A stretch of DNA of 64,000 nt, taken from Candidatus Doudnabacteria bacterium (GTDB lineage: Bacteria; Patescibacteriota; Doudnabacteria; UBA920). The notes under the pieces were generated by a model that was not told where the DNA came from, made no database searches, and saw only the letters and a list, made by a program, of their open reading frames with translations. Shown in pieces: positions 42,705-57,732 of this stretch. The DNA lies in assembly GCA_031291995.1 (NCBI GenBank), contig JARLHZ010000025.1, positions 91,965-155,964 on the forward strand, written 5' to 3'. A program made the position numbers and the translations under genes. The first letter of the stretch is position 1. Every line of letters begins with the position of its first letter.

Positions 42705-43751
42705 TTAATTTGTAGGTTTTTCTACTCTGTCGACCATAAATTTGACCGCCTCATTGGTATTTGTTGATTCGATAATAATATTTGGGTGTTTGGTTTGGAA
42801 TACTCGATAAATTTCGTCTACAAAAGCTTGTCCGACCGTCGGTACCTTATCGTAGTCAAAAACAATATGTCTAAATTTTTCAAGACCAGTCAGCACTCTC
42901 CTAGCTTGAGATCTCGAAACATAAATCGTCCCCATGGTATAAAGTTTTACCTGGACTTTAGTCTTGTCAAAATTTGGTTCATTCGGATCGGATGAAAAAG
43001 CTTTAAAGGTATCGCTTAAATGTTTTGTAGTATCTAGCGATATTTTAAAGGTAACGCGGGTGCCCTTTTTCAGACGCGGCAGTTCTCCAACAAAAATATC
43101 GGGAATGAGGTTATCTATCCTAAGCCGAAACTCAAAGCTTTCCAAGCTAAAAACATCTGCGACCTTGGAAGTGAAAAAAATCCCTTCGCCTGAATGAGCC
43201 TGTGGCTCAGTGGTAGTTTTTCCTTTCAGTAAATCTTGGATAGCTTCCAGTTCCGATTTTAGTCCGCGTTTTCTCATGACATTTTTAAATACGCCTACAC
43301 CAAAATCACTCACAACAAAGCAGAGGTTATTGTCTTCTTTTGCAACCTCAATTTCTATAAATTTTGACTTGGAATGTTCAATTGCATTATTTAGCATTTC
43401 AGAAAAAGCGTAATCAAAAATGCTGCGAATGCTTTCTTCAGCTTTAACGATGAACGGCAAGCGTCGGTTAATATCATTTAAAACCTCGTGTTCTTTTAAG
43501 GAGCTATTGCTGAGACGCAGTTTGATTTTATTGCCCAAGCTTTCCTGTGCCTCATCCTGTTTTCCTGGCAACACATAAAACGTGTTGGTGGTCTGACCTA
43601 CCCTCACGATCTTTCCTTCTTGGGCTAGACTGTTCAGCACTCTGCTCACATACTGCCTGGAGTACTGATTCTTTAAGGCTGTTACGGTATCACTGGTTTT
43701 AAGCCGTTTTTTCTCCTCTATTAGCCTTAATATGGTCTTTTTTATATCCAT
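42705..43751 (-). CDS. wHTH - GHKL (histidine-kinase-like) ATPase - DUF4325/STAS-like domain protein
   Basis: N-terminal wHTH; N-box LNNAIEHSKSK and G-box VSDFGVGV; C-terminal HIVFDYDKVPTVGQAFVDEIYRVF resembling DUF4325. Confidence 0.6.
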   Translation of the reverse strand: MDIKKTILRLIEEKKRLKTSDTVTALKNQYSRQYVSRVLNSLAQEGKIVRVGQTTNTFYVLPGKQDEAQESLGNKIKLRLSNSSLKEHEVLNDINRRLPFIVKAEESIRSIFDYAFSEMLNNAIEHSKSKFIEIEVAKEDNNLCFVVSDFGVGVFKNVMRKRGLKSELEAIQDLLKGKTTTEPQAHSGEGIFFTSKVADVFSLESFEFRLRIDNLIPDIFVGELPRLKKGTRVTFKISLDTTKHLSDTFKAFSSDPNEPNFDKTKVQVKLYTMGTIYVSRSQARRVLTGLEKFRHIVFDYDKVPTVGQAFVDEIYRVFQTKHPNIIIESTNTNEAVKFMVDRVEKPTN

Positions 43752-43999: not shown

Positions 44000-44227
44000 G
44001 ACGACCTATGGAATGTACACCAACAGTAACTTCGAAAAGTTACAGGATGTATATTTTATTCCTTAGAAAGGAGGTGTTACCGAGCCAACTTGACGCAATT
44101 TAACACTGTGTCAACAATAGGAATAATTTTTAATCTGCTACCTGTATTTTAACGCTGAACCAAACTTATGGCAAGGCCGCACCACGCTTGGCTTAGTGCC
44201 AGTAGTATGCTCTGGCTAATAAAACAA

Positions 44228-44258
44228 AAACAGCCCTGCAAGAGAGCTGTTTTTTGAA
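44228..44258. terminator. Bidirectional terminator hairpin
   Basis: AAAAACAGCCCTGCAAGAGAGCTGTTTTTTG. Confidence 0.55.
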
Positions 44259-44295: not shown

Positions 44296-44631
44296 CTATT
44301 GTGGCATACTTTCCAACTTCATAAACTCTTCAAAGGGAATATCCTTACCACCGACAGCAATAACAGCATCGGAAACAGTATTCATACCCGAGCCTCCTAC
44401 CCACTCCTCGCCGACAATCTTGCCCATAACTTTTGCTTTTAATCTTTCAAAATCACCATCGCTTAACGGAGCCTCTTGGCTATTAGTTCGTGATCCATTA
44501 TTAACTTTAAACTTTAGCACAACATTTATAGGTTGTTTTTGCTTTTCTGCGTCTTCCAAACTCAATACCTCGGCTTGATAATCAACAACTGCTTCCGGAG
44601 GAGTTTGTAAGGTACCCATTTCTTTAGACAC
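44296..44631 (-). CDS. Hypothetical protein; annotated start lies inside IS3 terminal repeat
   Basis: 111 aa; first codons ATGTCTAAAGAAATGGGTACC coincide with the IS3 right-end inverted repeat. Confidence 0.3.
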   Translation of the reverse strand: MSKEMGTLQTPPEAVVDYQAEVLSLEDAEKQKQPINVVLKFKVNNGSRTNSQEAPLSDGDFERLKAKVMGKIVGEEWVGGSGMNTVSDAVIAVGGKDIPFEEFMKLESMPQ

Positions 44632-44651
44632 CTTGTAAGCGGTTTTTTAGG

Positions 44652-45491
44652 TTAAGTTAATGATACTTGATTTCGCTGCCGGTCGGCAAATGCTGACGGC
44701 GGCATTTTTAATGATGTGTGGATTCTGTAGTGATTGTAGCTATGGATAAGGAGGTAGATTTCGGCGGTCAGTTCCCCTAAGGTCTTAAACCTCCCCGGAT
44801 CACCTAAGTCAGTTTTAAACTTACCATAGAACGATTCCTGGTAGCCGTTTTCCCAAGGGCTGGATTTACGACTCATGGAAATTGTAATGCCGGCTTGTTC
44901 TGCAAGCCCGCAGTAAGTTTGAGACTTGTATTCCTGTCCTTGGTCGGAATGCAGGTATTTGGCGGCTGGGTGTTTTTCTAAAGCGTCAATTAAAGCCAGT
45001 AAAATTAACTGGCTGCTATGCGCGGTCCAGACTGACCAGCCGACAACCTCTCTGGTAAATAAATCTATTATCGTCGCCAGATAAACAAACCGGCCGTGGA
45101 ATGGTATGTAGGTAAAGTCACTGACCCAGACAATGCCTTCATGTTCAGGGAACGGAATCAGCAATAACCAATTCTGGTAGGGTGCGACAATTTGTCCTAA
45201 ATCCCGCTTCTTTGTTAGCTTTTTACCCCTCCTACGATAAGGCTTAATGCCAAACAGCTTCATGACGCGCCGGACTCTTTTTTTGTTTACTCCCAATACC
45301 GGAGCTAATCGTTTGTGGCCATAGCTTGGGTGGTCATGGAGGGTTTGTTCAATGCGGATTTTAAGAAGCCAGTCTTTTTGAGGAAGTGCCGGTTCGTAAT
45401 ACAGGCTGGCCCTACTGACTCCCAGACTTTTAGCCAATTCGGTCTTAGTCGGATTTTCAAGGTGCATAGACTCAGCCAGCTCCTTAACCAA
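44652..45491 (-). CDS. IS3-family transposase OrfB (rve/DDE integrase domain)
   Basis: 279 aa; DDE integrase-fold region (WVSDFTYIPF... HSDQGQEY...). Confidence 0.8.
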   Translation of the reverse strand: MVKELAESMHLENPTKTELAKSLGVSRASLYYEPALPQKDWLLKIRIEQTLHDHPSYGHKRLAPVLGVNKKRVRRVMKLFGIKPYRRRGKKLTKKRDLGQIVAPYQNWLLLIPFPEHEGIVWVSDFTYIPFHGRFVYLATIIDLFTREVVGWSVWTAHSSQLILLALIDALEKHPAAKYLHSDQGQEYKSQTYCGLAEQAGITISMSRKSSPWENGYQESFYGKFKTDLGDPGRFKTLGELTAEIYLLIHSYNHYRIHTSLKMPPSAFADRQRNQVSLT

Positions 45492-45750
45492 GTTCCTTTT
45501 TTTCCGCCAATGACAGTTTGACTGTCAGTCGGCCGATAATCTCGTGCAGGGTTTGGTTCTCCCGCTTTAGTCGGGACAGTTCAATCACCGAGGGCGGCGC
45601 GGTAACTCCCTTGGCTATCCAGCCGTAGATAGTCTGGGTGGACAAGCCATGTTCCTCGGCGGCTTGGGTGACACTGACGCCTTCTTCCTTAATGCGTTTT
45701 AAAATTTGCTGTTTGACTTCCAGGCTGACTTTGTATTTGCCTTTGGGCAT
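45484..45750 (-). CDS. IS3-family transposase OrfA (HTH)
   Basis: 88 aa HTH plus leucine-zipper-like; overlaps orfB by 8 nt around GGAAAAAAAG (minus strand, plus-strand 45496-45504). Confidence 0.8.
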   Translation of the reverse strand: MPKGKYKVSLEVKQQILKRIKEEGVSVTQAAEEHGLSTQTIYGWIAKGVTAPPSVIELSRLKRENQTLHEIIGRLTVKLSLAEKKELG

Positions 45751-45814
45751 AGTTAGAAATTCCTTTCTAACCTAATTATACCTCAGACTAAGTGTCTTAA
45801 ATTTGGGGTACCGG

Positions 45815-47005
45815 TCATAATTTGGTTTGATATTGTTTGTGAGTAGCGCGTTTCCATTCCATTTCTACTTGATATTTTCTGGATTGCAGAATATTTTGAT
45901 GTTCGTCTTGAGTAAAATGCACCTGGCCATTTTTGTCTACGCCAAAATGCTCCAGATAAATATCGTAATCGGACAAATAAAAGTCTGGTTTATATTGTCT
46001 GTATTCGCTATTGGAAGTTTTGTACTTATACGGAGCTTCGTATTGGTAATTAACGCCGTTAACACATAAAAAGTTGGCAACCATTACTTCCTGCTGGCTT
46101 TTTACCAATTCTTTTTTTAAAGTAAGATTCTGCTTGGTTTTAACATATTTATAATAGTCATCCAGATTTTTAAAGCCGGGCTTTAAAATTACCGGCTTAA
46201 AATAATAAGCAAAGTATTCCACTGCCCGCTGTAGATAGCTAGGGTTTTTTAGTAGCAAGCTAAATTGTTCGTCAAGAAAATTTTGTCTGGCTGTACTGCT
46301 AGGAAAAGCCAGATCCGGCCTTTGGTCAAGAGCTTTGCCAATAACTGACAAGCCAAAGCTATGGAAAGTTTGGGCTTTAACGCTGTTTTCCCCGAATTTT
46401 TTACTTATCCTATCGGCCAATTCTTCTACGGCCCTGCCGGTAAAAGACAAAAGCAAAATATCTTCCGGTTTAATTTTTACCCGCTCCAAGATGTATGCTA
46501 ATTTGCCCATTATGGTAGTTGTCTTGCCGGTGCCTGCGCCAGCTACTAATAATGTGTTGTCTTCGTCCGAAGCAATGGCCGTAACTTGGTCCTTGTTATT
46601 TTGGATTTGTTTCGCGCTTAGTATTTGCTTAATGGTAGACGATTCACGCTGAACAAAGTTTTCGTTAAATTTGTCAATAAACAGTTCCCTGCCTTTGTTA
46701 TAAAAGTCCGCAAAGTCGGTAACCAGTTTTTTAAATTGATCCCGCGTTTTAACTTTATACAATAACGGACTGAACATTTCGGCCAGATATTGATATTTGG
46801 TTTTCCACAACCGATATTGTCGATTGCTAATATACCAATTTTGCCTGCTTAAGCCGTTAAATTCGCCCAAGGCGTTCTTAAACTCCGGCTCGTGCTTCTT
46901 TAAGGCTAATAACAAATTAAGCGAGCGCCTATTTTTTAGGAACTCGCTAAATTCATAGGCTCCAAATATTAAAATGGCAATTATTAATACGGAAAAAAAT
47001 AACAT
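45815..47005 (-). pseudogene. UvrD/PcrA-like helicase N-terminal fragment, apparently truncated by the IS3 insertion
   Basis: Walker A LLVAGAGTGKTTTIMGK but only about 250 aa after it and no motifs IV-VI; its TGA stop is the terminal TCA/TGA of the IS3 end. Confidence 0.5.
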
Positions 47006-47018
47006 AAATATTTACATT

Positions 47019-47300
47019 CTAAATCTTTTCAGTATGTTTGCATTTTGGATAGCTTGTACAACCATAAAATTCTCCAAACTTGCCGGAACGTATTTGCATT
47101 GGACTGCCGCAAGCAGAGCAAATTTTGTCAGTCGAGTTTTCCGAAACCGTACCATTTTTTAATTTATTCTTGCGTTTTAAATAGTCTAAAAAATCCGGTG
47201 CTAATTCGGCAATAATATAAAAAACAGCCAAAACAATTAGCCAAGGCCAAAAAGTTTTTAACACCGACCAAAATATATTACCAACAAAATCAGGTTGCAT
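47019..47300 (-). CDS. Small membrane protein with topoisomerase-type C4 zinc ribbon
   Basis: N-terminal TM then CSACGSPMQIRSGKFGEFYGCTSYPKC (zf-C4_Topoisom-like). Confidence 0.5.
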   Translation of the reverse strand: MQPDFVGNIFWSVLKTFWPWLIVLAVFYIIAELAPDFLDYLKRKNKLKNGTVSENSTDKICSACGSPMQIRSGKFGEFYGCTSYPKCKHTEKI

Positions 47301-47599
47301 AAGTCACCTTAATTAATTGCTCGGCCAATTGTTCCTTTAGCCCGTCTTCTTCCACTTCCATTCTTATTTCGTCCTCTAAATCTTCAAGTGGCATAGGTTT
47401 TAACTACTTGATCTACCTTTTCCGGTTGTAATTATTTCCAAGGCTAAATAAGGCCCAAATGAAACCAACCAGGGTTAAGAAAACCGCGAGCCCTTTATGC
47501 CCGGTTTTAAAAAGAGCGTATATTAAGCAACAAAATGCTACAAAAAGTATGAAGTCTAACATTGGAGAATAATTACAATTTTAATGGCACAAAAGCCTT

Positions 47600-48277: not shown

Positions 48278-49291
48278 TTATGCTTGGCTTTCGTATGACT
48301 TATGGACGGCAGCAATCACCTCAGGCAATGATTCAGCTGCTATGGTAAAATCCCATCCGCCGCCTTTATCTATGGCCATTCCTTTGGGCAGCTGGCCGCC
48401 AATTGCCCAGGTCCAACCCCAAATTTCACGAGAACCTTCGCCGTACTGAACAAAAATTTTAGACCTGTTTTCACTCCGGCGCAATGATACGAACCCGTTT
48501 TTTAAAGTATACCGGTAGATATCATCGCCAAACCCGTTCACAGTGGTTAAAAATTTACCAAGTACGCTGCCTTTTTCTGGAGCATTGGTCGAGGCCAAAA
48601 AGTCTGACAACTTTTCTGCACGAACTTCGCTCGACCTATGTGAAACGCCAATATTCTTCTTAGTCTCAACTCCGAATAACTTTGGAATCATTATTTCATA
48701 TTCGTTAAACTTGTAATAATCAAGTTGTATTGCGTATATGTCAAACTGGCTGTTTCGGTTGACATAGATAATTAAATCTTTTAACCTATCTTCCATTTCG
48801 TCCATTAATATTACAAATTTAAGATTACCCTCAAATAGATTGCGGCGCATTGCTTCTAAAAGCTCGTCTGTTTTTTCTTCATCAAGACTAAAAAATTCCG
48901 TAACCTTCTGTTTAAAACTCAAATTAAATTTTATCTCGACTTCCTCATCTAAAAGATGAATAAATTCGTTAAAATCACCTTGGTGTTTCCAAAGAGCCGC
49001 TCCATAATCAAGTGCTTGGGCAACTACCGTCCTTTTGTCCGGATTTTTAAATAGTTTGGTTTCCACAATATAAATATCTCCGTCCTTATCTATCGCCAAA
49101 GCATCGATCGACCCGGACTCTGTTGGAAACTCACGCGCAGCAACAAAGAGATGCTTGTCTTCTTCAATTTCATATACTGGAATTGACTCTGGATTTTGAT
49201 GGATATAATTTTGAAGGTAATCTTCCTTTTCAAAATTAGATTTGTCTATTTTTTTGGCGTTCATACCGCCTTGGGAAACAATAATACTCAT
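48278..49291 (-). CDS. Hypothetical protein with N-terminal PD-(D/E)XK-like (Hjc/NucS-like) motif
   Basis: GSIDALAIDKDGDIYIVETKL (D...D/E-x-K arrangement) near residue 60-80; C-terminal domain unassigned. Confidence 0.45.
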   Translation of the reverse strand: MSIIVSQGGMNAKKIDKSNFEKEDYLQNYIHQNPESIPVYEIEEDKHLFVAAREFPTESGSIDALAIDKDGDIYIVETKLFKNPDKRTVVAQALDYGAALWKHQGDFNEFIHLLDEEVEIKFNLSFKQKVTEFFSLDEEKTDELLEAMRRNLFEGNLKFVILMDEMEDRLKDLIIYVNRNSQFDIYAIQLDYYKFNEYEIMIPKLFGVETKKNIGVSHRSSEVRAEKLSDFLASTNAPEKGSVLGKFLTTVNGFGDDIYRYTLKNGFVSLRRSENRSKIFVQYGEGSREIWGWTWAIGGQLPKGMAIDKGGGWDFTIAAESLPEVIAAVHKSYESQA

Positions 49292-49382
49292 ACATTATCT
49301 ATTAATTGTGAATTTAATATTTACGCCAATGGCTATAGTTGATCCCGTCTTCTAAATCTTCATATTCAACGGACATAGGGTA

Positions 49383-50120
49383 TTATTTTTCTACTGCTTG
49401 GGCTTTGGCCCTATATTGGCAAAATTCACATTCAAGATTGGATTCGGGCAAATCGGATAGGTTTAAGCAATCGTAAATATTAAAAATTGTTTGCTCTACC
49501 CAAGAGTCACTGCCGGTATAAGGGATTAGTTTGGCATCAAATTCCAGTACGCCGTTAAAACCTGCTCTGTCTTTCTTTCCATTCACGTAAAAAAAGTAGC
49601 CGGTATTGGAAACTTTTAGGCCATTTTGCCTTAACAACCACTGGTAGACTTCCATTTGCCTGCGGTAGGAGTTGTGCCATTTGGCGTCAGTTAGTTCTAC
49701 TTCGCCCTCCTTGCTGGTGGCCTTGTAATCCACCACAATATATTCTCCCGCCGAATTTTTCCACAAATCATCTATGGCCCCATAAACTAGCATATTGATT
49801 TTTTTGTGGAGGCACTGCACGCCTGTAAAGTTATGCCGCCACTGGTCCAAAAGTTCATGAGCCACAGGAACAGCGTCCAGGCCGTAAGTTTCCATAAGCG
49901 GATGTTTGGTTCCGTTGGCGCGGTATACATCAAACTCTTTTTTTAGCAAAGCGTCCACAGCCACATTCAAAGTAAATGCTGGGCCAGATGGCCTGGAAAT
50001 CCCCAACCGCCGGTCCATATAAAAACAGCGCGGACAATCCAAAAACATATCAATCTTTGATCGGCTCAATTTAAAAGGTTTATCAGACGCAGGGTTGTAC
50101 AAATTGTTTATTCTAGGCAT
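49383..50120 (-). CDS. Cas4-like / RecB-family PD-(D/E)XK nuclease with four-cysteine cluster
   Basis: N-terminal CPRCFY and C-terminal CEFCQY cysteine pairs; GAIDDL, IVVDYKAT and QMEVYQWL (QhxxY) nuclease motifs. Confidence 0.6.
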   Translation of the reverse strand: MPRINNLYNPASDKPFKLSRSKIDMFLDCPRCFYMDRRLGISRPSGPAFTLNVAVDALLKKEFDVYRANGTKHPLMETYGLDAVPVAHELLDQWRHNFTGVQCLHKKINMLVYGAIDDLWKNSAGEYIVVDYKATSKEGEVELTDAKWHNSYRRQMEVYQWLLRQNGLKVSNTGYFFYVNGKKDRAGFNGVLEFDAKLIPYTGSDSWVEQTIFNIYDCLNLSDLPESNLECEFCQYRAKAQAVEK

Positions 50121-50180
50121 TTACTTTCCTTAAAATTTTCATAAATTTAACAATACTTAATGGGTTATATCCCCCACCGC

Positions 50181-51344
50181 TTATTCGGTTTTATTGGTAT
50201 GGGAAAGCTCTTCAAACTTAGCAGCCATTGTAGGGTTGCCGCGCGTTAGTCTTTTGATTGTCAAATCTTCTGCTTTATCATTAGCGAGACGGAGATTATT
50301 TTCAGACGATAAGAGAGCCTCTTTGGTTTTCTGAAGATGGTCTATGGTTTTGTCAATTTCATCGATTGCTGTTTTAAAACGGTTAGAAGCAATCTGGTAA
50401 TTTTTAGAAAAGCCCTCTTTAAATTTATTAATATTGTCCTCAAAGTTTGTGATGTCAACATTTTGGTTCCTCACCAAAGCAAGCTCGGCTTTGTATTTAA
50501 GTGAATTCATGGCCGAGTTGCGCAGCAGGGTTATCATTGGGATAAAAAATTGTGGGCGGACCACATACATTTTGGGATGTTTATGGGATACATCAACAAT
50601 GCCGGTATTATATAGTTCATTTTCGGCTTCCAAAAGCGTAACAAGGACGGCGTATTCGCACTTCTTCTCTGTCCGATCTTTATCAAGCTCGCGTAAAAAA
50701 TCTTCATTTTTGTGTTTTGTAGCGGTTTCGTCGCCTTCATTTTTCATCTCAAACATAATAGAAATGATTTCATTGCCGACCTCATCATTTTCGCGATAAA
50801 TGTAATCACCCTTACTGCCGGATTTTGTATTGTTGTCTTTTTCGAAATACGCATTCTGAAAACCGGTCGCGCGAAGCTTGTTAAACTCGGTTTCGCAGTG
50901 CTGTTCAAGGGTTTCGCCAACCATCTTCGTTGAGAGTTTAAGCTTCATATCCTTACGGAAAGCAATTTCGTCGTCCTTCATCTTTATAATGTCGTCCTTG
51001 GTCCTGAGTTCGGCGGCAAGTTCGTCACGTTCTTTCGCAACTTTATTGACCGCTTCTGTGACTGCGAGTTTTTTCTCTATTTCTGCATTACTGTTTTTTG
51101 ATTTTATTTCGGCTAATTCAGCTTCCTTCTTCGCAATGTCCTTTTGCAATGCATTTGTAATATTTGCCTCTGCAAGTTTAACAGCAGTTTCTTTATTTTT
51201 TTCCAACATTTCTATACGCTCATGCAGTTCTTTTTCAAACTCATGATTGCGGACTTGCTTCAAAATATCGGCAAATCCTGCTTCGTCGACTTTAAAAGCT
51301 TTTTTACAATGTGGACATATAATTTCATTCATATTTTTGAACAT
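50181..51344 (-). CDS. DUF2130-like coiled-coil protein with N-terminal CxxC
   Basis: [36 protein letters not shown] start and long coiled-coil. Confidence 0.5.
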
Positions 51345-51359
51345 TAATTTTGCAACATC

Positions 51360-54323
51360 CTATATGCTCATTTTATTAAGTACGTGCTCAAACACGCGCT
51401 CTTGCACAAACTTTTTTAATTCCGGATTTTGGTCGAGTTTTTGGTACAGACTAAAATGATTATCCAATACTCCAACAAGCTCGTCCTGAAAGAGTTGGTC
51501 AAATTTTAACTTGGCTGCGTCTTTGCTGTTATTTTTTACGGAGCCTTTTAATACATGGTTATTTACCAAACGCGAACTTAAATCGTTTAAAATTACCCGG
51601 TCGCCGTCGTTAAAATTTGTTCCGTAGCGCTCATTAATTTCTTTAATGATTCTTGAAAGAGGGTCTATTGCCGCCTCGGCAATACGGCCTTCCCCTCCCC
51701 CGCCCATAGGATAAATAATTCCCTCTGTATTGTCTAATTGTATATTTACCTTGCCCTTGTTCTCAATCCTGTAAGTTTCCATATCTATTGCATCCAATAC
51801 CTCCACCGGCAACGGATTTTCCCGCTTAGGCGATTTTTTGATTAAAAATTTTAAAAAGATGAACAGCTTTTCCAGTTGTGGATCTTTAAAAGTAATTATT
51901 TGGGAAATAAAGGCATACTTTTTTAAATATTCCGCAACCGTGGTTTTAAAGCTTTCCATTTCTTCTTCTGTCAGGTTCTCGTCATTTATCCTGGCTACCA
52001 CATTGTCAATAATATGGTTAAGTTTATCCGGCGTTGCTCCACCCAAGTATTCTTCAGTAAACCCATTGATTTCAAAGTCGGTAAAAAATTTAAACCCACG
52101 CACTTCGCGTTCCAAATTGTGCAAAATGTTCGGGTCCGTCGCTTCAGACAGCACCGTGGTAGTGTAATACGGTTGGAAAGCTTCTTTAATGTCGTCCGTC
52201 TCATTTACGAAATCCAAAACAAAAGTTTCGTCTTTGCCGTACGTAGTTCTGTTTAAACGCGAAAGTGTTTGAACCGCTCTAACATCGCTGAGTTTTTTGT
52301 CCACATACATAACCGTTAGCATAGGCTGGTCAAAACCGGTTTGAAATTTTTCCGCCACAATCAAAAATTTATTTTCGTCCTTCTTAAATTCTTCAGCCGT
52401 TTGGCTTTCCGGGACTTTATTCATTTGACCTTCGGTATATTCCAGTTTTGTATCCACGTCTTTTACAGTGCCCGAAAAAGCCACCAAGGCTTTATGATTG
52501 TAGCCTTTTTCTTTAAGGTATTTATCAAAAGCAATTTTGTAACGAACCGCGTGCAAACGGGACTTTGTAACCACCATTGCTTTTGCGCGTCCCGCAATGA
52601 GTAATGCAATTTTTTCTTCAAAATGTTCCACCATAATAGCCGTTTTTTTATCAATGGCATGCTCATGGCGCTCTACATAGCCAATCATAAGCCTTTGGGC
52701 TTTTTTCTTATCAAATTCCGGGTCGTCTTCTATTTTTTTGAGTAAGCCAAAATAAGTTTCGTAAGTGGTGTAGTTTTTTAGCACATCCAAAATAAACTTT
52801 TCTTCTATGGCCTGCTTCATGGAATACAAAGAAAACGGAATAAATTTACCGGTAACCGCGTCCTTGTCTCCAAATAGTTCCAACGTCTTCTGCTTTGGCG
52901 TGGCGGTAAAAGCAAAAAATGAAAGGTTCGGGGAACTGACCTTTCTAGCCTTCATGCGCTCAATAATTTGGTCTTCAACTGTTTTAAAAACATGCTCTTC
53001 TTTTTCGGCTTGCTTTTCGGCTTCATCTAAAGTTAATACCTGACGTAAATCCGCCGCGGACTCCCCGGACTGTGAAGAATGCGCTTCGTCTATAATTACC
53101 GCAAATTTTTTTCCTTCAACTTTTTCTATTGTCTCTACAATAACCGGGAATTTCTGCAAAGTGCTTGTTAGTATTCTAACCCCGGTTTCCAAGCCCTCGC
53201 GCAGTTCGGCGGATGTTTCCACGTGCTTAACCAAACCTTTAACCTGGCTAAAATCTGTTACCGTATTAGAAAGTTGCCTGTCTAAAACCCGGCGGTCAGT
53301 TACTACAATAACGCCGTCAAATACATTTTTATTGGAATCGTCATGAAGTTCTGCAAGACGGTGCGCCACCCAGGCAATGGTATTGCTTTTGCCGGACCCG
53401 GCGCTATGTTGAATTAAATAATTTTTGCCGGTTCCATTTGCCTGCGCGTCTACAACAATTCTCTTTACGGTTTCTAATTGATGATACCGTGGAAAGATTA
53501 ATTTTTCTTCCTTTTTCTTTTTGCCGTTCTTGTCTTCTTTTTCTTCCGTCACTTCCTGAATGAAATTGCCTATTAAATCAAACACACTGTCCTTGGAAAA
53601 AATATCTTCCCACAAATAATGCGTTTTGTATTTTCCTTCCGGCGCTTCCGGATTTTTAGATGAGTTTTTGTCGCCTTTATTAAATGGCAAGAAAACCGTG
53701 GAAAGACCCGAAAGCCGGGTGGTCATAAACGCCAAGTCTGTATCTACCGCAAAATGAGTAAAGCAGCGCTTAAAAGATAAAAGTTTTTCTTTATTGTCGC
53801 GGTCGGTTTTATATTGTGATATGGCGTTAATAACATTTTGCCCGGTAAACTGATTTTTAAGCTCTATTGTAAACACCGGTAAGCCATTTACAAAAATAAC
53901 CATATCTATGGAATTTTCATTCTTGCCACTATATTTAACCTGCCTCATAACACTTAAAATATTCCCGGCATAATCGGCAACCGTCTCCGGGTTCCTGTCA
54001 TTCTGCGGTTTAAAATAAGCAAGCTTAACCCGCACTCCCCTGTCTGTAATGCCCTCACGAAGCACGCTTAACAAACCACGCGAACTAATTTCTTCATCCA
54101 CCCGAGCCAAAAACCTCTCCGCGACATCTTCCCCATACTGCTCAACCAGCTTCTCCCAAGCCTCATTTTGAGTCTCCAAAACAAACTCCAAAACCAGCTC
54201 TGCATCCATACAGAGCTCTTTATTAAAAGTTGAATTTAATCTAGATTTATACTTATGAAGCTTTATCAGCTCCTGCTCTATAAATTCCTCAAAACCCGAT
54301 TCTTTAGTGTTAGATTTTGTCAT
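51360..54323 (-). CDS. hsdR: Type I restriction enzyme R subunit
   Basis: 987 aa; Walker A HSAGSGKSNT, DEAH box VIIDEAHSSQ, helicase C-terminal motifs, N-terminal nuclease region. Confidence 0.9.
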   Translation of the reverse strand: MTKSNTKESGFEEFIEQELIKLHKYKSRLNSTFNKELCMDAELVLEFVLETQNEAWEKLVEQYGEDVAERFLARVDEEISSRGLLSVLREGITDRGVRVKLAYFKPQNDRNPETVADYAGNILSVMRQVKYSGKNENSIDMVIFVNGLPVFTIELKNQFTGQNVINAISQYKTDRDNKEKLLSFKRCFTHFAVDTDLAFMTTRLSGLSTVFLPFNKGDKNSSKNPEAPEGKYKTHYLWEDIFSKDSVFDLIGNFIQEVTEEKEDKNGKKKKEEKLIFPRYHQLETVKRIVVDAQANGTGKNYLIQHSAGSGKSNTIAWVAHRLAELHDDSNKNVFDGVIVVTDRRVLDRQLSNTVTDFSQVKGLVKHVETSAELREGLETGVRILTSTLQKFPVIVETIEKVEGKKFAVIIDEAHSSQSGESAADLRQVLTLDEAEKQAEKEEHVFKTVEDQIIERMKARKVSSPNLSFFAFTATPKQKTLELFGDKDAVTGKFIPFSLYSMKQAIEEKFILDVLKNYTTYETYFGLLKKIEDDPEFDKKKAQRLMIGYVERHEHAIDKKTAIMVEHFEEKIALLIAGRAKAMVVTKSRLHAVRYKIAFDKYLKEKGYNHKALVAFSGTVKDVDTKLEYTEGQMNKVPESQTAEEFKKDENKFLIVAEKFQTGFDQPMLTVMYVDKKLSDVRAVQTLSRLNRTTYGKDETFVLDFVNETDDIKEAFQPYYTTTVLSEATDPNILHNLEREVRGFKFFTDFEINGFTEEYLGGATPDKLNHIIDNVVARINDENLTEEEMESFKTTVAEYLKKYAFISQIITFKDPQLEKLFIFLKFLIKKSPKRENPLPVEVLDAIDMETYRIENKGKVNIQLDNTEGIIYPMGGGGEGRIAEAAIDPLSRIIKEINERYGTNFNDGDRVILNDLSSRLVNNHVLKGSVKNNSKDAAKLKFDQLFQDELVGVLDNHFSLYQKLDQNPELKKFVQERVFEHVLNKMSI

Positions 54324-54433
54324 AATCTTATAAAATACTTATAACGGTTACATAAGAAAGGCCTATATTTATTGCATTTTTTTGATAATTTTTCTAAAAT
54401 TGGTTTAACTTGTTACATAAGATAGTTTAAAAA

Positions 54434-54462
54434 TTGACAGGCGGGATACATTCGTTTACAAT
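54434..54462 (+). promoter_or_regulatory. Consensus sigma70-type promoter TTGACA-N17-TACAAT (plus strand)
   Basis: TTGACA 54434-54439, 17-nt spacer, TACAAT 54457-54462; AGGTG RBS and ATG at 54482 follow. Confidence 0.45.
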
Positions 54463-54541
54463 AGGTATATGCAGGTGCTTGATGGCCATTGAGCCATTAA
54501 GTATGCGGGCATACATTGAATGTATACCCCGCAGGCCTGCT

Positions 54542-55207
54542 TTATCTCCATTTTACTCTCCATTCGTTGAACCGGCTATTGCCCACGGCAAGCCGGATTT
54601 TTTGTACCTCCGTAGCTAATCGGCCTTTTATTTTATCGGAACCTTTATAAACCGAACTGCCAAGCAAAACATCAGCCATTTGAACTAATAATACGCCATG
54701 GCTGTCCACTTGCAAAACATCCCACAGCTGAGGAACAACTGCCGGAAGTGTAGAAATAGAATGGGTCGGTGCCTTTTTTGGCTGCCTTAAATAATCCGCG
54801 ATTAAGGTTGTCTTTTCTTCAGCTTTTAAATTTTTTTGAAGCAGCATTTTAATATAACGCAAATAACATTCCCAGGATTCCAAATAGTCTTTCGGCGCCT
54901 GGAATTTAACGTCATTTAAGTCTACAAAAAAAGAACAAAATCTCCAATTGGGTTCGTTTAACAAAATTTTCAAACAATTTAAATAATAAGGCAGAGATTT
55001 TTGCGTAACGGAGGTAAATTTAAATTCAACCCTACTACTGTCTTTTTTTAGCGCGTTGCATAACCCTTCATACTCGCTATGAAGCGCGGTAATAAGTTTG
55101 TCCGGGAACGAATGGACAATCGCGCCCACCGCAAAATACCTTACAGCCCGATTCTGCACATTAAGCGTACCCGACTCATCCAAAAAACAAAAAGTTGGTT
55201 TAATCAT
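54542..55207 (-). CDS. DUF3800-like protein
   Basis: N-terminal CFLDESGT (DESG start typical of DUF3800); 221 aa; embedded between hsdS and hsdR. Confidence 0.5.
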   Translation of the reverse strand: MIKPTFCFLDESGTLNVQNRAVRYFAVGAIVHSFPDKLITALHSEYEGLCNALKKDSSRVEFKFTSVTQKSLPYYLNCLKILLNEPNWRFCSFFVDLNDVKFQAPKDYLESWECYLRYIKMLLQKNLKAEEKTTLIADYLRQPKKAPTHSISTLPAVVPQLWDVLQVDSHGVLLVQMADVLLGSSVYKGSDKIKGRLATEVQKIRLAVGNSRFNEWRVKWR

Positions 55208-56521
55208 TTATACTTTCACTTTCCCCGTAACCACATTGGAAATTAGGGAAGATTTAAATTTGTTTAATAATTCAATTGATTTTTCTGTTTTTTCTAAAAT
55301 AGCATTAAATGTTGAAATTTTTTCATCTAAGAACTTAATAATTAAATTTTGTTCGTCTTTGCTTGGATAAATCATTTCCAACGAACTTAAGTCAAAAGGA
55401 GTGATTGCTGGGTAGCCAATGCCTTTTGAATTAAGAATGACTTGACTAATAAATCTATCGGACTGTAAGTAATAAAAAAGGTATTTTGGCAATAAGTTTT
55501 TACCAGGAGTTAATACGGCAAAACCAGTAGATGCAATAGTATTTGTATCGAGTTTATCAAAATAAGCAATGGCCTTTAAGTAAGTTCTAACTGTAGCGAT
55601 TATTGAATCGCCAACACTCACAACTCTACGAGCCCTACTTGGTGCTTTTTCAAAAGTAATTTCATTTTCTATATTTGACGCCTCTTCTCCATCCACAGAC
55701 CCAATGTCAAAATATTTAAAAGAGAAGTCGGGATCTGTGTTCTCTGAAAGAGATTTTTTATTCATTTGGGAGACTCTTTTTATTTTTTCAATATTCCATC
55801 CTTTCGGAATTTTGCCAATCCATTCGACATCGCTTTCAACATACTCAGCTTTTGGGTCAAGGCCTTTTGACACGGCATTATTAATAACAGCCGTGCGTTT
55901 TTCGCGCAGGAGTTCTATTAACTTTTGCTTTTTTTCAATAATTTGGTCAATGGTTGCAATTTTTTCGTCGAGATAATTTGCAATTTTTTCTTGCTCATTA
56001 ATATTTGGGATTAATGTTGGCAAATATTTAAAATTGCTAAAATCTAGCGTTTGTCTAACCCCTCCACCCATCCCATAATAAACTTTCTGAATGTCGTAGG
56101 CGTGAAATAAATAGTAGGTGAATTTTGAGTTTAATTTTTCACTCAATTGCAACGCTAAATAAGCTGAAGTAATTATACCTGGCTCATCAAAGTTCATATA
56201 GCCGACTCTTAAACTTTTTTTGTCATTTTGTAAGTCAGTCAGACGAAATACAATATTCCCTTTATTTATAACTTGATAAGTATTGAATGATTCTGGTAGT
56301 AATCCCTCGTTTGAGTCGATATCTTTTTGAATTATTTTACCATAGCTTAATGATAAGAGATTATTACATTTTCCCTCAATATTATTTTGTTCATTTTCAA
56401 AAGCGACTGATCGCAAGGGTGTTACATCCCAATCTTTAGGAATTTTGCCAATCCACTCAACGCCCGAGTTTTTGTATTCGGGATATTTTTTATATTCTTT
56501 TTTTAGCTGTAATTTAGGCAT
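55208..56521 (-). CDS. hsdS: Type I restriction-modification specificity subunit (two target-recognition domains)
   Basis: 437 aa; two TRDs separated by conserved helical spacer (IDQIIEKKQKLIELLREKR) and C-terminal repeat of the same. Confidence 0.85.
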   Translation of the reverse strand: MPKLQLKKEYKKYPEYKNSGVEWIGKIPKDWDVTPLRSVAFENEQNNIEGKCNNLLSLSYGKIIQKDIDSNEGLLPESFNTYQVINKGNIVFRLTDLQNDKKSLRVGYMNFDEPGIITSAYLALQLSEKLNSKFTYYLFHAYDIQKVYYGMGGGVRQTLDFSNFKYLPTLIPNINEQEKIANYLDEKIATIDQIIEKKQKLIELLREKRTAVINNAVSKGLDPKAEYVESDVEWIGKIPKGWNIEKIKRVSQMNKKSLSENTDPDFSFKYFDIGSVDGEEASNIENEITFEKAPSRARRVVSVGDSIIATVRTYLKAIAYFDKLDTNTIASTGFAVLTPGKNLLPKYLFYYLQSDRFISQVILNSKGIGYPAITPFDLSSLEMIYPSKDEQNLIIKFLDEKISTFNAILEKTEKSIELLNKFKSSLISNVVTGKVKV

Positions 56522-57732
56522 ATTTGTAAATATTGTGGAAAACGGTACGGGGTCAAGACATTTTGTGATTGAGCCTGTGGAAAAGTTTCCATTAAGGGAT
56601 TAAAGAGGTTGTCCAGGATTAACATCGGAAAGCGGCAGATCTGGTCGGCATTGTATATGCCAAGAGAGTCAAGTTTTTCTTTAGGCGACATTCCGTTCAT
56701 GCCAATACCGTCAGAGGCGCGACGGTTGTAGTAAAAATTCCAGTACTGTCCTTCTATCAGAAAATCGGAGTTACTGTTAATGTGTTCCCCCCTGGGGCAG
56801 TAAAATTCTTCGTCGTCGATCCTGTGCGTCCGTTCCACCAGGTTGTTCTTCCACTTTGCTCCGCCTGTCCACTCGGCCGCGGCTCCCAGCGGCTTTAACT
56901 GTTCGTTCCAATCCGCAAGCTTCCTCTCTGAAGCGGAAAAGAATTCCGCGCCGCCGTCCATTCGCGTGTTAATATTGTTTTGTATGTTATGGGCTCTCAG
57001 CCAGAGAATTACGGTTTGTAAAAACTTTAATCCATAAAAAGAACTTAAGGTATACGACCAGGCCAAGAATCTGGTTTTGGTCTTGGCGTCAACAATCGTC
57101 CATTGGTATTTGGGCAGAGCAAGCTTTTGGCTTTTAAACTTCTGATAAATTTCTTTCGGCAAAGCGTGTTGGTCTAAAATTTCCTTGGTATCGTACTGTA
57201 ATTGCTCAAATGCCCCAATTTCCGCATAGTTGTACAAGGCCCTGCGTTCCCCGTTAACGGTCCTAATCTTTTTCCCTTTTAGCCCCAGTCTTTTGTAAAC
57301 TCCCTTGATTTTGGAAAAAGTAAAGGCCTCCATGTCCAGCCCGGCTATTTTAAAATGCTTGTAGAGGCGTTTAAAGCCGTAGTTTAATTTCAAATGTTTC
57401 TCTGTGATGGTTTTTTCGGTATTTTCGTCAGCCGTCCGCTTGTTGGTCTTGGGCCTTCTGGACTCAAACTTTAAAAATTCAAACAGCTTTAAATCATCAG
57501 TTTTAATCTTTTCGTTGCAGGACAGCAGGCAAAGGACTTTAGAGTCAGACTGATTTTTACAAAGTTTAATAATTTCATTAACGGTATTTTTATGGCAGCC
57601 GATATCCCGGGCAATGTCTTTTTGGGGGATGTGGTCGGCAAAGTAATGGCGGGCGATTTTCAGCCGGGTGATGATCGGCCCTTCGGTTTTGCAATTGTCC
57701 TTGTAACTCATTACAATACTTTTACAGGTCAT
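56503..57732 (-). CDS. DDE (rve-type) transposase, IS481/IS30-like single-ORF
   Basis: N-terminal HTH; WTIVDAK, RMDGGAEF, NLVERTHRIDDEEF = D,D,E catalytic triad spacing; stop overlaps hsdS start by 19 nt. Confidence 0.65.
   Translation of the reverse strand: MTCKSIVMSYKDNCKTEGPIITRLKIARHYFADHIPQKDIARDIGCHKNTVNEIIKLCKNQSDSKVLCLLSCNEKIKTDDLKLFEFLKFESRRPKTNKRTADENTEKTITEKHLKLNYGFKRLYKHFKIAGLDMEAFTFSKIKGVYKRLGLKGKKIRTVNGERRALYNYAEIGAFEQLQYDTKEILDQHALPKEIYQKFKSQKLALPKYQWTIVDAKTKTRFLAWSYTLSSFYGLKFLQTVILWLRAHNIQNNINTRMDGGAEFFSASERKLADWNEQLKPLGAAAEWTGGAKWKNNLVERTHRIDDEEFYCPRGEHINSNSDFLIEGQYWNFYYNRRASDGIGMNGMSPKEKLDSLGIYNADQICRFPMLILDNLFNPLMETFPQAQSQNVLTPYRFPQYLQICLNYS

Follow-up and report, generated by a model that had tools for sequence, protein, structure and literature searches.

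The window examined here is a 64-kb (64,000-nucleotide) stretch of a Candidatus Doudnabacteria metagenome-assembled genome (MAG), and this report concerns a helicase IV-like gene of the UvrD/Rep superfamily 1 (SF1) type whose 5′ part runs directly into an insertion sequence (IS) of the IS3 family. On the other side of the IS lies the end of an unrelated gene, read in frame with a start codon that the IS itself supplies. All features of the locus are on the minus strand, on a contig of 266,756 bp (Table 1), and positions are those of the window. Five related copies of the IS from Doudnabacteria MAGs (L006-L010), whose transposase protein OrfB is 82-90% identical to that of the window, were used for comparison, and the layout of the reading frames was surveyed in 81 related IS3 loci (L006-L085) from genomes of the candidate phyla radiation (CPR). 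The species-representative genome collection does not contain the source MAG, and the best copy of the IS found there is 90% identical.

Table 1. Features of the window at and upstream of the interrupted helicase gene
Positions	Strand	Feature	Basis or remark
44226-44254	-	Terminator-like hairpin after the gene fragment	Follows 44296-44604
44296-44604	-	3′ fragment of an unrelated gene, last 102 codons plus stop	Family of proteins P0123 and P0124; in frame with the IS-encoded start
44606-45817	-	Complete IS3-family IS, 1212 bp, TG...CA ends	Alignment edges against five related copies; GC content
44606-44655	-	Right inverted repeat (IRR), ends ...AAGGTGTCTAAAGAAATGGGTACCTTACA	Bears outward ATG (44617-44619) and Shine-Dalgarno (SD)-like AAGGTG (44629-44634)
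44652-45491	-	orfB, 279 aa, DDE (rve) catalytic domain	PF00665, E 8e-22; +1 frame relative to orfA
45484-45750	-	orfA, 88 aa, helix-turn-helix	PF01527 HTH_Tnp_1, E 3e-9; NCBIfam IS3 model matched over positions 1-79
45496-45503	-	Probable recoding site, an A7G run read as A AAA AAG in the orfA frame	Run conserved in L006-L010
45503-45536	-	RNA hairpin directly 5′ of the A run	-18 kcal/mol, z -5.2; none of 200 shuffled sequences folds as stably
45768-45817	-	Left inverted repeat (IRL), upstream of orfA, begins TGACCGGTACCCCAAATTTAAGACAC	TGA at 45815-45817 is the helicase stop codon
45818-47005	-	5′ fragment of helicase IV-like SF1 gene, codons 1-396	Hydrophobic N-terminal helix, Walker A; no motif II, no UvrD_C
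47019-47300	-	93-aa protein, hydrophobic N-terminal helix and topoisomerase-type C4 Zn ribbon	PF01396, E 1e-14
47290-47394	-	Acidic 34-codon open reading frame, overlaps the 93-aa gene by 11 nt	Predicted frame, no family match
48278-49291	-	PDC-S11-like candidate-defence protein	Upstream of helicase
49383-50120	-	Cas4-like PD-(D/E)XK nuclease	Upstream of helicase
50181-51344	-	DUF2130	Upstream of helicase
51360-54323	-	HsdR, 987 aa, type I restriction	Upstream of helicase
54542-55207	-	DUF3800	Upstream of helicase
55208-56521	-	HsdS	Upstream of helicase

Homology between the window and the five related copies has sharp limits, TGACCGGTACCCC (window 45817, minus strand) at its start and GGGTACCTTACA (44606) at its end, and the flanks are unrelated immediately beyond both. 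The alignment edges therefore define an element of 1212 bp with TG...CA termini. Its terminal inverted repeats are imperfect, scoring 37 against 18.8 ± 4.5 for random window pairs, a value reached by 6 of 2000 such pairs. The element occurs once in the window and has a GC content of 45-53%, compared with 33-41% in its flanks. Its two genes follow the order orfA, orfB with a called overlap of 8 nt, the orfB frame being open from about 45524, and orfB scores 205.8 bits against the NCBIfam IS3 transposase model NF033516 (cut-off 160). The rve core, the helix-turn-helix orfA followed by orfB, and the imperfect inverted repeats beginning 5′-TG and ending CA-3′ are those of the IS3 family; two other family traits, an orfB in the -1 frame reached by ribosomal frameshifting at an A6G-type heptamer and a target-site duplication of 3-4 bp, are missing. 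The +1 position of orfB does not exclude the element from the family, because the same position is known from published IS3 members, the IS1447 group. We regard it as an unnamed member of a known family, and the gene disruption as ordinary in kind. An earlier sequence-only reading of this DNA had described an IS3 element with matching terminal inverted repeats, and both the five-copy alignment and the transposase domains agree with it, coordinates included.

The open reading frame (ORF) that meets the left end of the IS (45815-47005) encodes 396 aa and is identical to NCBI entry MDR3642871.1, a ‘UvrD-helicase domain-containing protein’ from a Candidatus Doudnabacteria MAG. It matches the UvrD-helicase family (PF00580, E 2.6e-23) and AAA_19, has the Walker A sequence GAGTGKT at residues 156-162, and takes its TGA stop codon (45815-45817) from the first three bases of the IS. 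All 11 aligned homologues go on past residue 396, where ‘..YQTKL’ is followed by ‘IETFSYE..’, and continue through motif II (DEFQD) and beyond. None of the 11 ends at position 396, the ending that the sequence-only reading had named as the sign that no truncation took place. Motif II (DExQD) and UvrD_C are found neither in the 396-aa ORF nor anywhere in the 64-kb window, and a tblastn search of the window with the 3′ part of a relative gave a single match, the Zn ribbon of the separately encoded 93-aa protein. A full-length relative is best reconstructed at locus L001, which has 547 codons, an in-frame TAA and 245 more codons, about 797 in total, and ends with UvrD_C and a topoisomerase-type Zn ribbon. 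The earlier picture of a UvrD-like ORF that has Walker A, lacks its C-terminal half and stops on the first bases of the IS thus accords with the domain content and the position of the TGA.

The best NCBIfam match of the fragment is helicase IV. It resembles helicase IV (HelD)-type UvrD/Rep SF1 helicases in its UvrD N-terminal domain and Walker A motif, and its homologues are annotated ‘DNA helicase-4’, but its score of 95.3 bits is far under the equivalog cut-off of 543 for HelD (NF008276), and the CPR proteins differ from HelD in an extra N-terminus of ~130 aa with a hydrophobic helix.

The missing half of the gene is on another contig. A profile of the 3′ half built from two relatives found MDR3643308.1 (P0126), a 431-aa Candidatus Doudnabacteria protein encoded on a contig of 23,983 bp, which has UvrD_C and Zn_ribbon_Top1 domains and contains motif II. 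The protein starts MGTLH-IETFSFEF..., and the right end of the IS, ATG GGT ACC TTA CA, encodes MGTL and the first two bases of a fifth codon; the same IS-encoded start opens the 107/111-aa ORF of the window (MGTLQ...). The two helicase parts are complementary, with the window fragment aligning over residues 1-396 to residues 1-396 of the relative L005, and residues 6-222 of MDR3643308.1 aligning to residues 397-613. Their identities to outgroups are also alike: the 5′ half and MDR3643308.1 are 73% and 78% identical to L005, and 57% and 60% identical to L001. When joined into a sequence of 822 aa, they align with proteins annotated as single ORFs in one high-scoring segment pair that spans the junction. 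The accessions MDR3642868, MDR3642871 and MDR3643308 fall in one block of the same submission, and therefore a single MAG should be the source of both halves, a sister MAG from that batch being less likely; we infer that both belong to the same genome. Insertional truncation, as proposed earlier, is what one sees when the homologues run on past residue 396 and the rest of the gene is a separate ORF that starts in the right end of the IS. The split helicase gene is probably inactive.

The DNA beyond the right end of the IS belongs to something else. The 111-aa ORF found there (44296-44631) has its GTG start at 44631, and the ATG used by NCBI for a 107-aa protein is at 44619; both codons are inside the IS. 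The remaining 102 codons have no homologues in a word-index search, but a complete HMMER search of 1.8 billion representatives links them to two proteins, P0123 (376 aa; match to residues 274-369, E 1e-8) and P0124 (123 aa; match to residues 31-121, E 3e-7). Both proteins share a conserved F[IL]SGATP...PMS segment just upstream of the point at which the window sequence meets the IS. This segment is absent from the window, which therefore holds a 5′-truncated fragment of a different gene. The suspicion that the start of the 111-aa ORF is an artefact of the IS was accordingly correct, as the native part is a truncated fragment and both candidate starts are IS sequence.

We are confident that this arrangement goes back to an IS insertion between codons 396 and 397 of the helicase gene, followed by an exchange of flanks. 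The intact gene would have had ~820 codons, encoding a UvrD/Rep SF1 core preceded by an N-terminal membrane helix and followed by a topoisomerase-type Zn ribbon at the C-terminus. A 1212-bp element entering it on the same strand would close the 5′ half at once with the TGA of its left end, and its right end, where the SD-like AAGGTG stands 9 nt ahead of ATG GGT ACC TTA CA, would open an ORF into any DNA downstream. Since the 3′ half of the helicase lies behind an IS right end on another contig, there must be at least two IS copies, in the genome or in the population, whose flanks have been exchanged; the other copy would have inserted in a P0123-like gene. The flanks could have been swapped by homologous recombination between IS copies or by an assembler’s path through the repeat. 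We consider these two routes about equally likely, and a real deletion less likely than either.

The assembly route, by which the helicase would carry a simple insertion, a second IS would sit in the P0123-like gene and the contig would have been threaded to the wrong exit of the repeat, is a serious contender, with a chance only a little short of even. In the read graph, paths branch at the IS: a Logan contig (L088; SRR23300978, with the same sequence in six runs) is identical to window 45788-47405 and ends exactly 30 nt (k-1, with k=31) inside the IS, which is the signature of a repeat that the reads join to at least two left flanks. The 3′ half of the helicase sits on its own contig of 24 kb, with its ORF start 14 nt from the IS end, as expected for a contig that starts in the overlap with a repeat, and matched flanks are lacking at most IS copies in MAGs. 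Against a wrong join, unresolved repeats of 1.2 kb usually break assemblies rather than being crossed, the copies L006-L008 from a long-read MAG also lack matched flanks, so that this is not only an effect of assembly, and the helicase junctions as inferred give no clean duplication either. The other break of the Logan contig, at 47405, falls in the upstream region of small ORFs for no visible reason and could reflect strain variation.

It is less probable that an IS-mediated adjacent deletion removed everything from the helicase 3′ half to the middle of the next gene, with MDR3643308.1 derived from a sister strain or MAG. Such a deletion would account for the absence of the 3′ half from the window and for flanks consisting of two truncated genes on the same strand, and accession numbering does not prove a common genome. 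However, MDR3643308.1 shares the species label and the accession block of the window protein, and it is about as similar to the outgroups as the 5′ half is.

A simple one-step insertion, in which the helicase fragment, the IS and the 111-aa ORF would be one interrupted gene, can be dismissed as exceedingly improbable. The sequence-only reading had suggested that deletion of the IS with 3-4 bp might restore a longer frame, and when the IS was deleted together with 0-5 nt a long frame did open, at 1 and 4 nt only, joining 398 codons to 102 or 101 (~500 in all). The 4-bp deletion thus joins 398 to 101 codons, but the product is a chance chimera of unrelated genes: an open frame is expected by chance in one of three frames, no direct repeat of 3-4 bp is present (ATTA, AACT), the 102 downstream codons belong to a different protein family and do not give the IETFSYE... 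continuation of every homologue, and the true continuation is located elsewhere, in MDR3643308.1.

The flank exchange that we favour has several points against it. Recombination and misassembly are indistinguishable from the assembled sequence alone. The common origin of the two halves rests on accession numbering, and the index of MDR3643308.1, ~1320, is near the upper limit of a Doudnabacteria proteome, so the protein could be from a sister MAG of the batch. Its IS junction was deduced from the protein alone. The start of this protein implies a right flank of ‘Y ATH GAR’, that is codon 397 with one extra T or C, which fits neither a duplication of TTA (3-4 bp) nor one of a single nucleotide, for which an A would be expected. 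The absent duplication at the window copy is by itself weak evidence for an exchange, since all six copies of this IS type show none.

At the window copy the minus-strand flanks are TTA (45818-45820) and AAC (44603-44605), or ATTA and AACT when four nucleotides are taken. No target duplication was found there or at L006-L010, among which three are identical copies in a long-read MAG. Cross-matching of the flanks of these identical copies (L006-L008), a test of recombination as the cause of the absent duplications, gave no matching pairs. More distant relatives have 3-4-bp duplications in 7 of ~40 cases, compared with about 0.6 expected by chance. CTTCTT directly follows the right end of four unrelated IS copies from three genomes (L006, L058, L069 and L072), which could be a target preference or chance.

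The reading frames of the IS have a layout unlike that of most of its relatives. As the sequence-only reading stated, orfA and orfB overlap around an A AAA AAG heptamer (45496-45502) that is in the orfA frame; the implied classical -1 slip does not hold, as the frame that carries rve is +1 relative to orfA. The -1 frame lacks a catalytic domain and, in L009, runs into a stop after two codons. A -1 slip at the heptamer cannot yield OrfAB, because orfB is in the +1 frame, whereas loss of one A from the run would fuse the two frames. The classical -1 layout with A AAA AAG is found in 57 of the 81 related loci. Those with a +1 orfB behind runs of A7-A9 form a monophyletic group within the CPR IS3 relatives, including the window copy, L006-L011, L014, L016, L040, L052-L055 and L077-L081; the run of L009 is A6. 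Sets of 3, 3 and 5 copies that are identical in OrfB (DNA identity 99.6-100%) keep the +1 layout, which is therefore functional rather than a product of decay. Two isolated +1 cases inside the -1 clade, L043 (A6) and L050 (a doubtful frame call), look like mutated copies or artefacts.

The effect of a single A can be seen in a sister pair: L037 has A7 (295-301) and its orfA and orfB form one ORF of 356 aa, and L011 has A8 (2967-2974) and is split, so loss of one A does fuse the frames. The fused OrfAB of L037 may come from a homopolymer error of nanopore sequencing, or it may be a transposase that is constitutive by nature. The hairpin that abuts the A run in the window is also predicted in L006, L009 and L010; a scan of Rfam for a known frameshift element gave no match.

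This layout has a described counterpart in IS1447 of Clostridium thermocellum (IS1447/IS120 subgroup, IS3 family), in which orfB also needs a +1 shift (PMC6211511, Liu et al. 2018). Transcripts with altered numbers of A were cloned from that element, one A fewer giving in-frame OrfAB, and seven A's suffice; a stem-loop stands ahead of the run, and an A8 construct is the in-frame control (PMC6211511). Like IS1447, the window element has a helix-turn-helix orfA, a DDE/rve orfB at +1, an A run of the A7-A9 class at the end of orfA and a stem-loop immediately upstream, although its own run is only A7 (A6 in L009). Unlike IS1447, which has 5′-TA termini, inverted repeats of 48-49 bp and duplications of 3-4 bp (PMC6211511), it has TG...CA ends and repeats of ~30-45 bp, and no duplication is seen at six copies of its type; the hosts differ as well, Patescibacteria (CPR) in one case and Firmicutes in the other. 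By these traits, the +1 orfB, the run of at least seven A's and the upstream stem-loop agree with an IS1447-like element, and the 5′-TA termini and ~48-bp repeats do not. The likeness is one of layout, read from the sequence and set against the published description of IS1447, and makes the element a candidate for that subgroup at most. The element is also like IS911, IS3 and IS150 in its 1.2-kb length, TG...CA ends, helix-turn-helix OrfA, DDE OrfB, A AAA AAG in the orfA frame and score above the NCBIfam cut-off, but its orfB is at +1 rather than -1 and the window copy has no 3-bp target duplication.

By analogy with IS1447, OrfAB would most likely be made when RNA polymerase slips on the A7 run and drops one A, aided by the upstream hairpin, and we give this mechanism about an even chance. 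Six or seven A's are inefficient for transcriptional slippage in most systems, and slippage is here a prediction only. A -2 or +1 ribosomal shift would be another route, and a -2 slip on A7 would be predicted to re-pair. The element probably does not use -1 ribosomal frameshifting. It is very unlikely that it relies on classical -1 frameshifting on A AAA AAG and owes its +1 layout to a homopolymer sequencing error: the heptamer does sit in the orfA frame, and the same motif goes with orfB at -1 in most related elements, but run length and spacing are equal in six independent copies, three of them identical, a whole clade is defined by the +1 layout, and in the -1 frame there is no catalytic domain to reach, with a stop after two codons in L009. 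More tentatively, a widespread IS3 subclade of CPR/Patescibacteria may have dropped -1 ribosomal frameshifting in favour of hairpin-assisted slippage with loss of one A, on runs down to A6-A7. If this is true, the IS1447 mechanism would extend beyond Firmicutes and below the usual threshold of run length, and in any case the +1 clade offers natural variants for testing the shortest homopolymer that supports programmed transcriptional slippage.

For annotation, the 396-aa and 431-aa ‘UvrD-helicase’ proteins are halves of one gene split by an IS and not native genes, and the 107-aa ‘hypothetical protein’ is part of another gene fused to the IS; all three start or stop on IS sequence. The public annotation already shows the disruption, in the form of three odd coding sequences. 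For genome quality, the contig may be rearranged or mis-joined at the IS repeat. With a TGA at the left end and an SD sequence and ATG at the right, the ends of this IS split a host gene into a terminated and a re-initiated ORF, as seen in the helicase and again in the 111-aa ORF. What the analysis adds is the location of the other gene half, the warning on the contig and the placement of the IS in a +1-frame A-run IS3 subclade common in CPR genomes; current concepts are left unchanged by the finding.

The outward ATG of the IRR (AAATGGGTACC) after the SD-like AAGGTG is conserved in many relatives, L006-L009, L017, L026, L033 and L083 among them, and NCBI has annotated two different downstream fragments from it, MGTLQ... 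and MGTLH.... Some relatives of the IS end in a perfect outward -35 hexamer, TTGACA.

The 102-aa fragment at the right end corresponds to a small uncharacterised domain that has no Pfam match and a conserved ...PFEEF C-terminus. The domain makes up a 123-aa protein and also forms the C-terminal part of one of 376 aa, the latter encoded after an XRE-type helix-turn-helix gene; the loci concerned are L086:611-1741 and L087:424-1554. A third candidate relative of the 111-aa ORF, the 1162-aa protein P0122 with Ig-like repeats, matched over 26 residues of repeat sequence only and was not used. Downstream of the gene fragment on the minus strand is a 348-aa protein (42705-43751) with a histidine-kinase-like ATPase and a STAS-like DUF4325 domain.

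Upstream of the helicase, the 93-aa protein is the product of a separate gene, and the Zn-ribbon mini-protein noted in the sequence-only reading is confirmed by its PF01396 match. The acidic 34-codon ORF also noted there does overlap this gene by 11 nt, but it lies at 47290-47394 and not at 47296-47397. In the loci of five helicase relatives (L001-L005) neither the small upstream ORFs nor the 111-aa ORF was found. Further upstream, the helicase gene borders on a type I restriction/defence island (48278-57732; Table 1), and an HsdR gene also precedes the helicase in the relative L004.

PADLOC models gave only generic matches to the UvrD core of the helicase (E 1e-14 to 1e-6), spread across many GajB models, and no GajA model was matched by the eight neighbouring proteins scanned, so the specific GajB match and the adjacent GajA of a Gabija system are both lacking here. 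Residues 269-359 of the helicase (window 45927-46199; YKPDFYL...YLEHFG), an insertion in the core, match the C-terminal part of the PADLOC candidate PDC-S68 (E 3e-16), and this segment is conserved in all the helicase homologues.

Among the four closest homologues no two are broken alike. The window copy is interrupted by the IS, L005 (1997-3835) has an in-frame stop at codon 431, and L001-L003 (L001:1381-3774) have an in-frame TAA at codon 548 that recurs across three contigs of different samples. L004 (5035-6540) diverges near codon 470 into an antisense DegT gene. Such varied breakage would fit rapid turnover of an accessory gene of the defence island.

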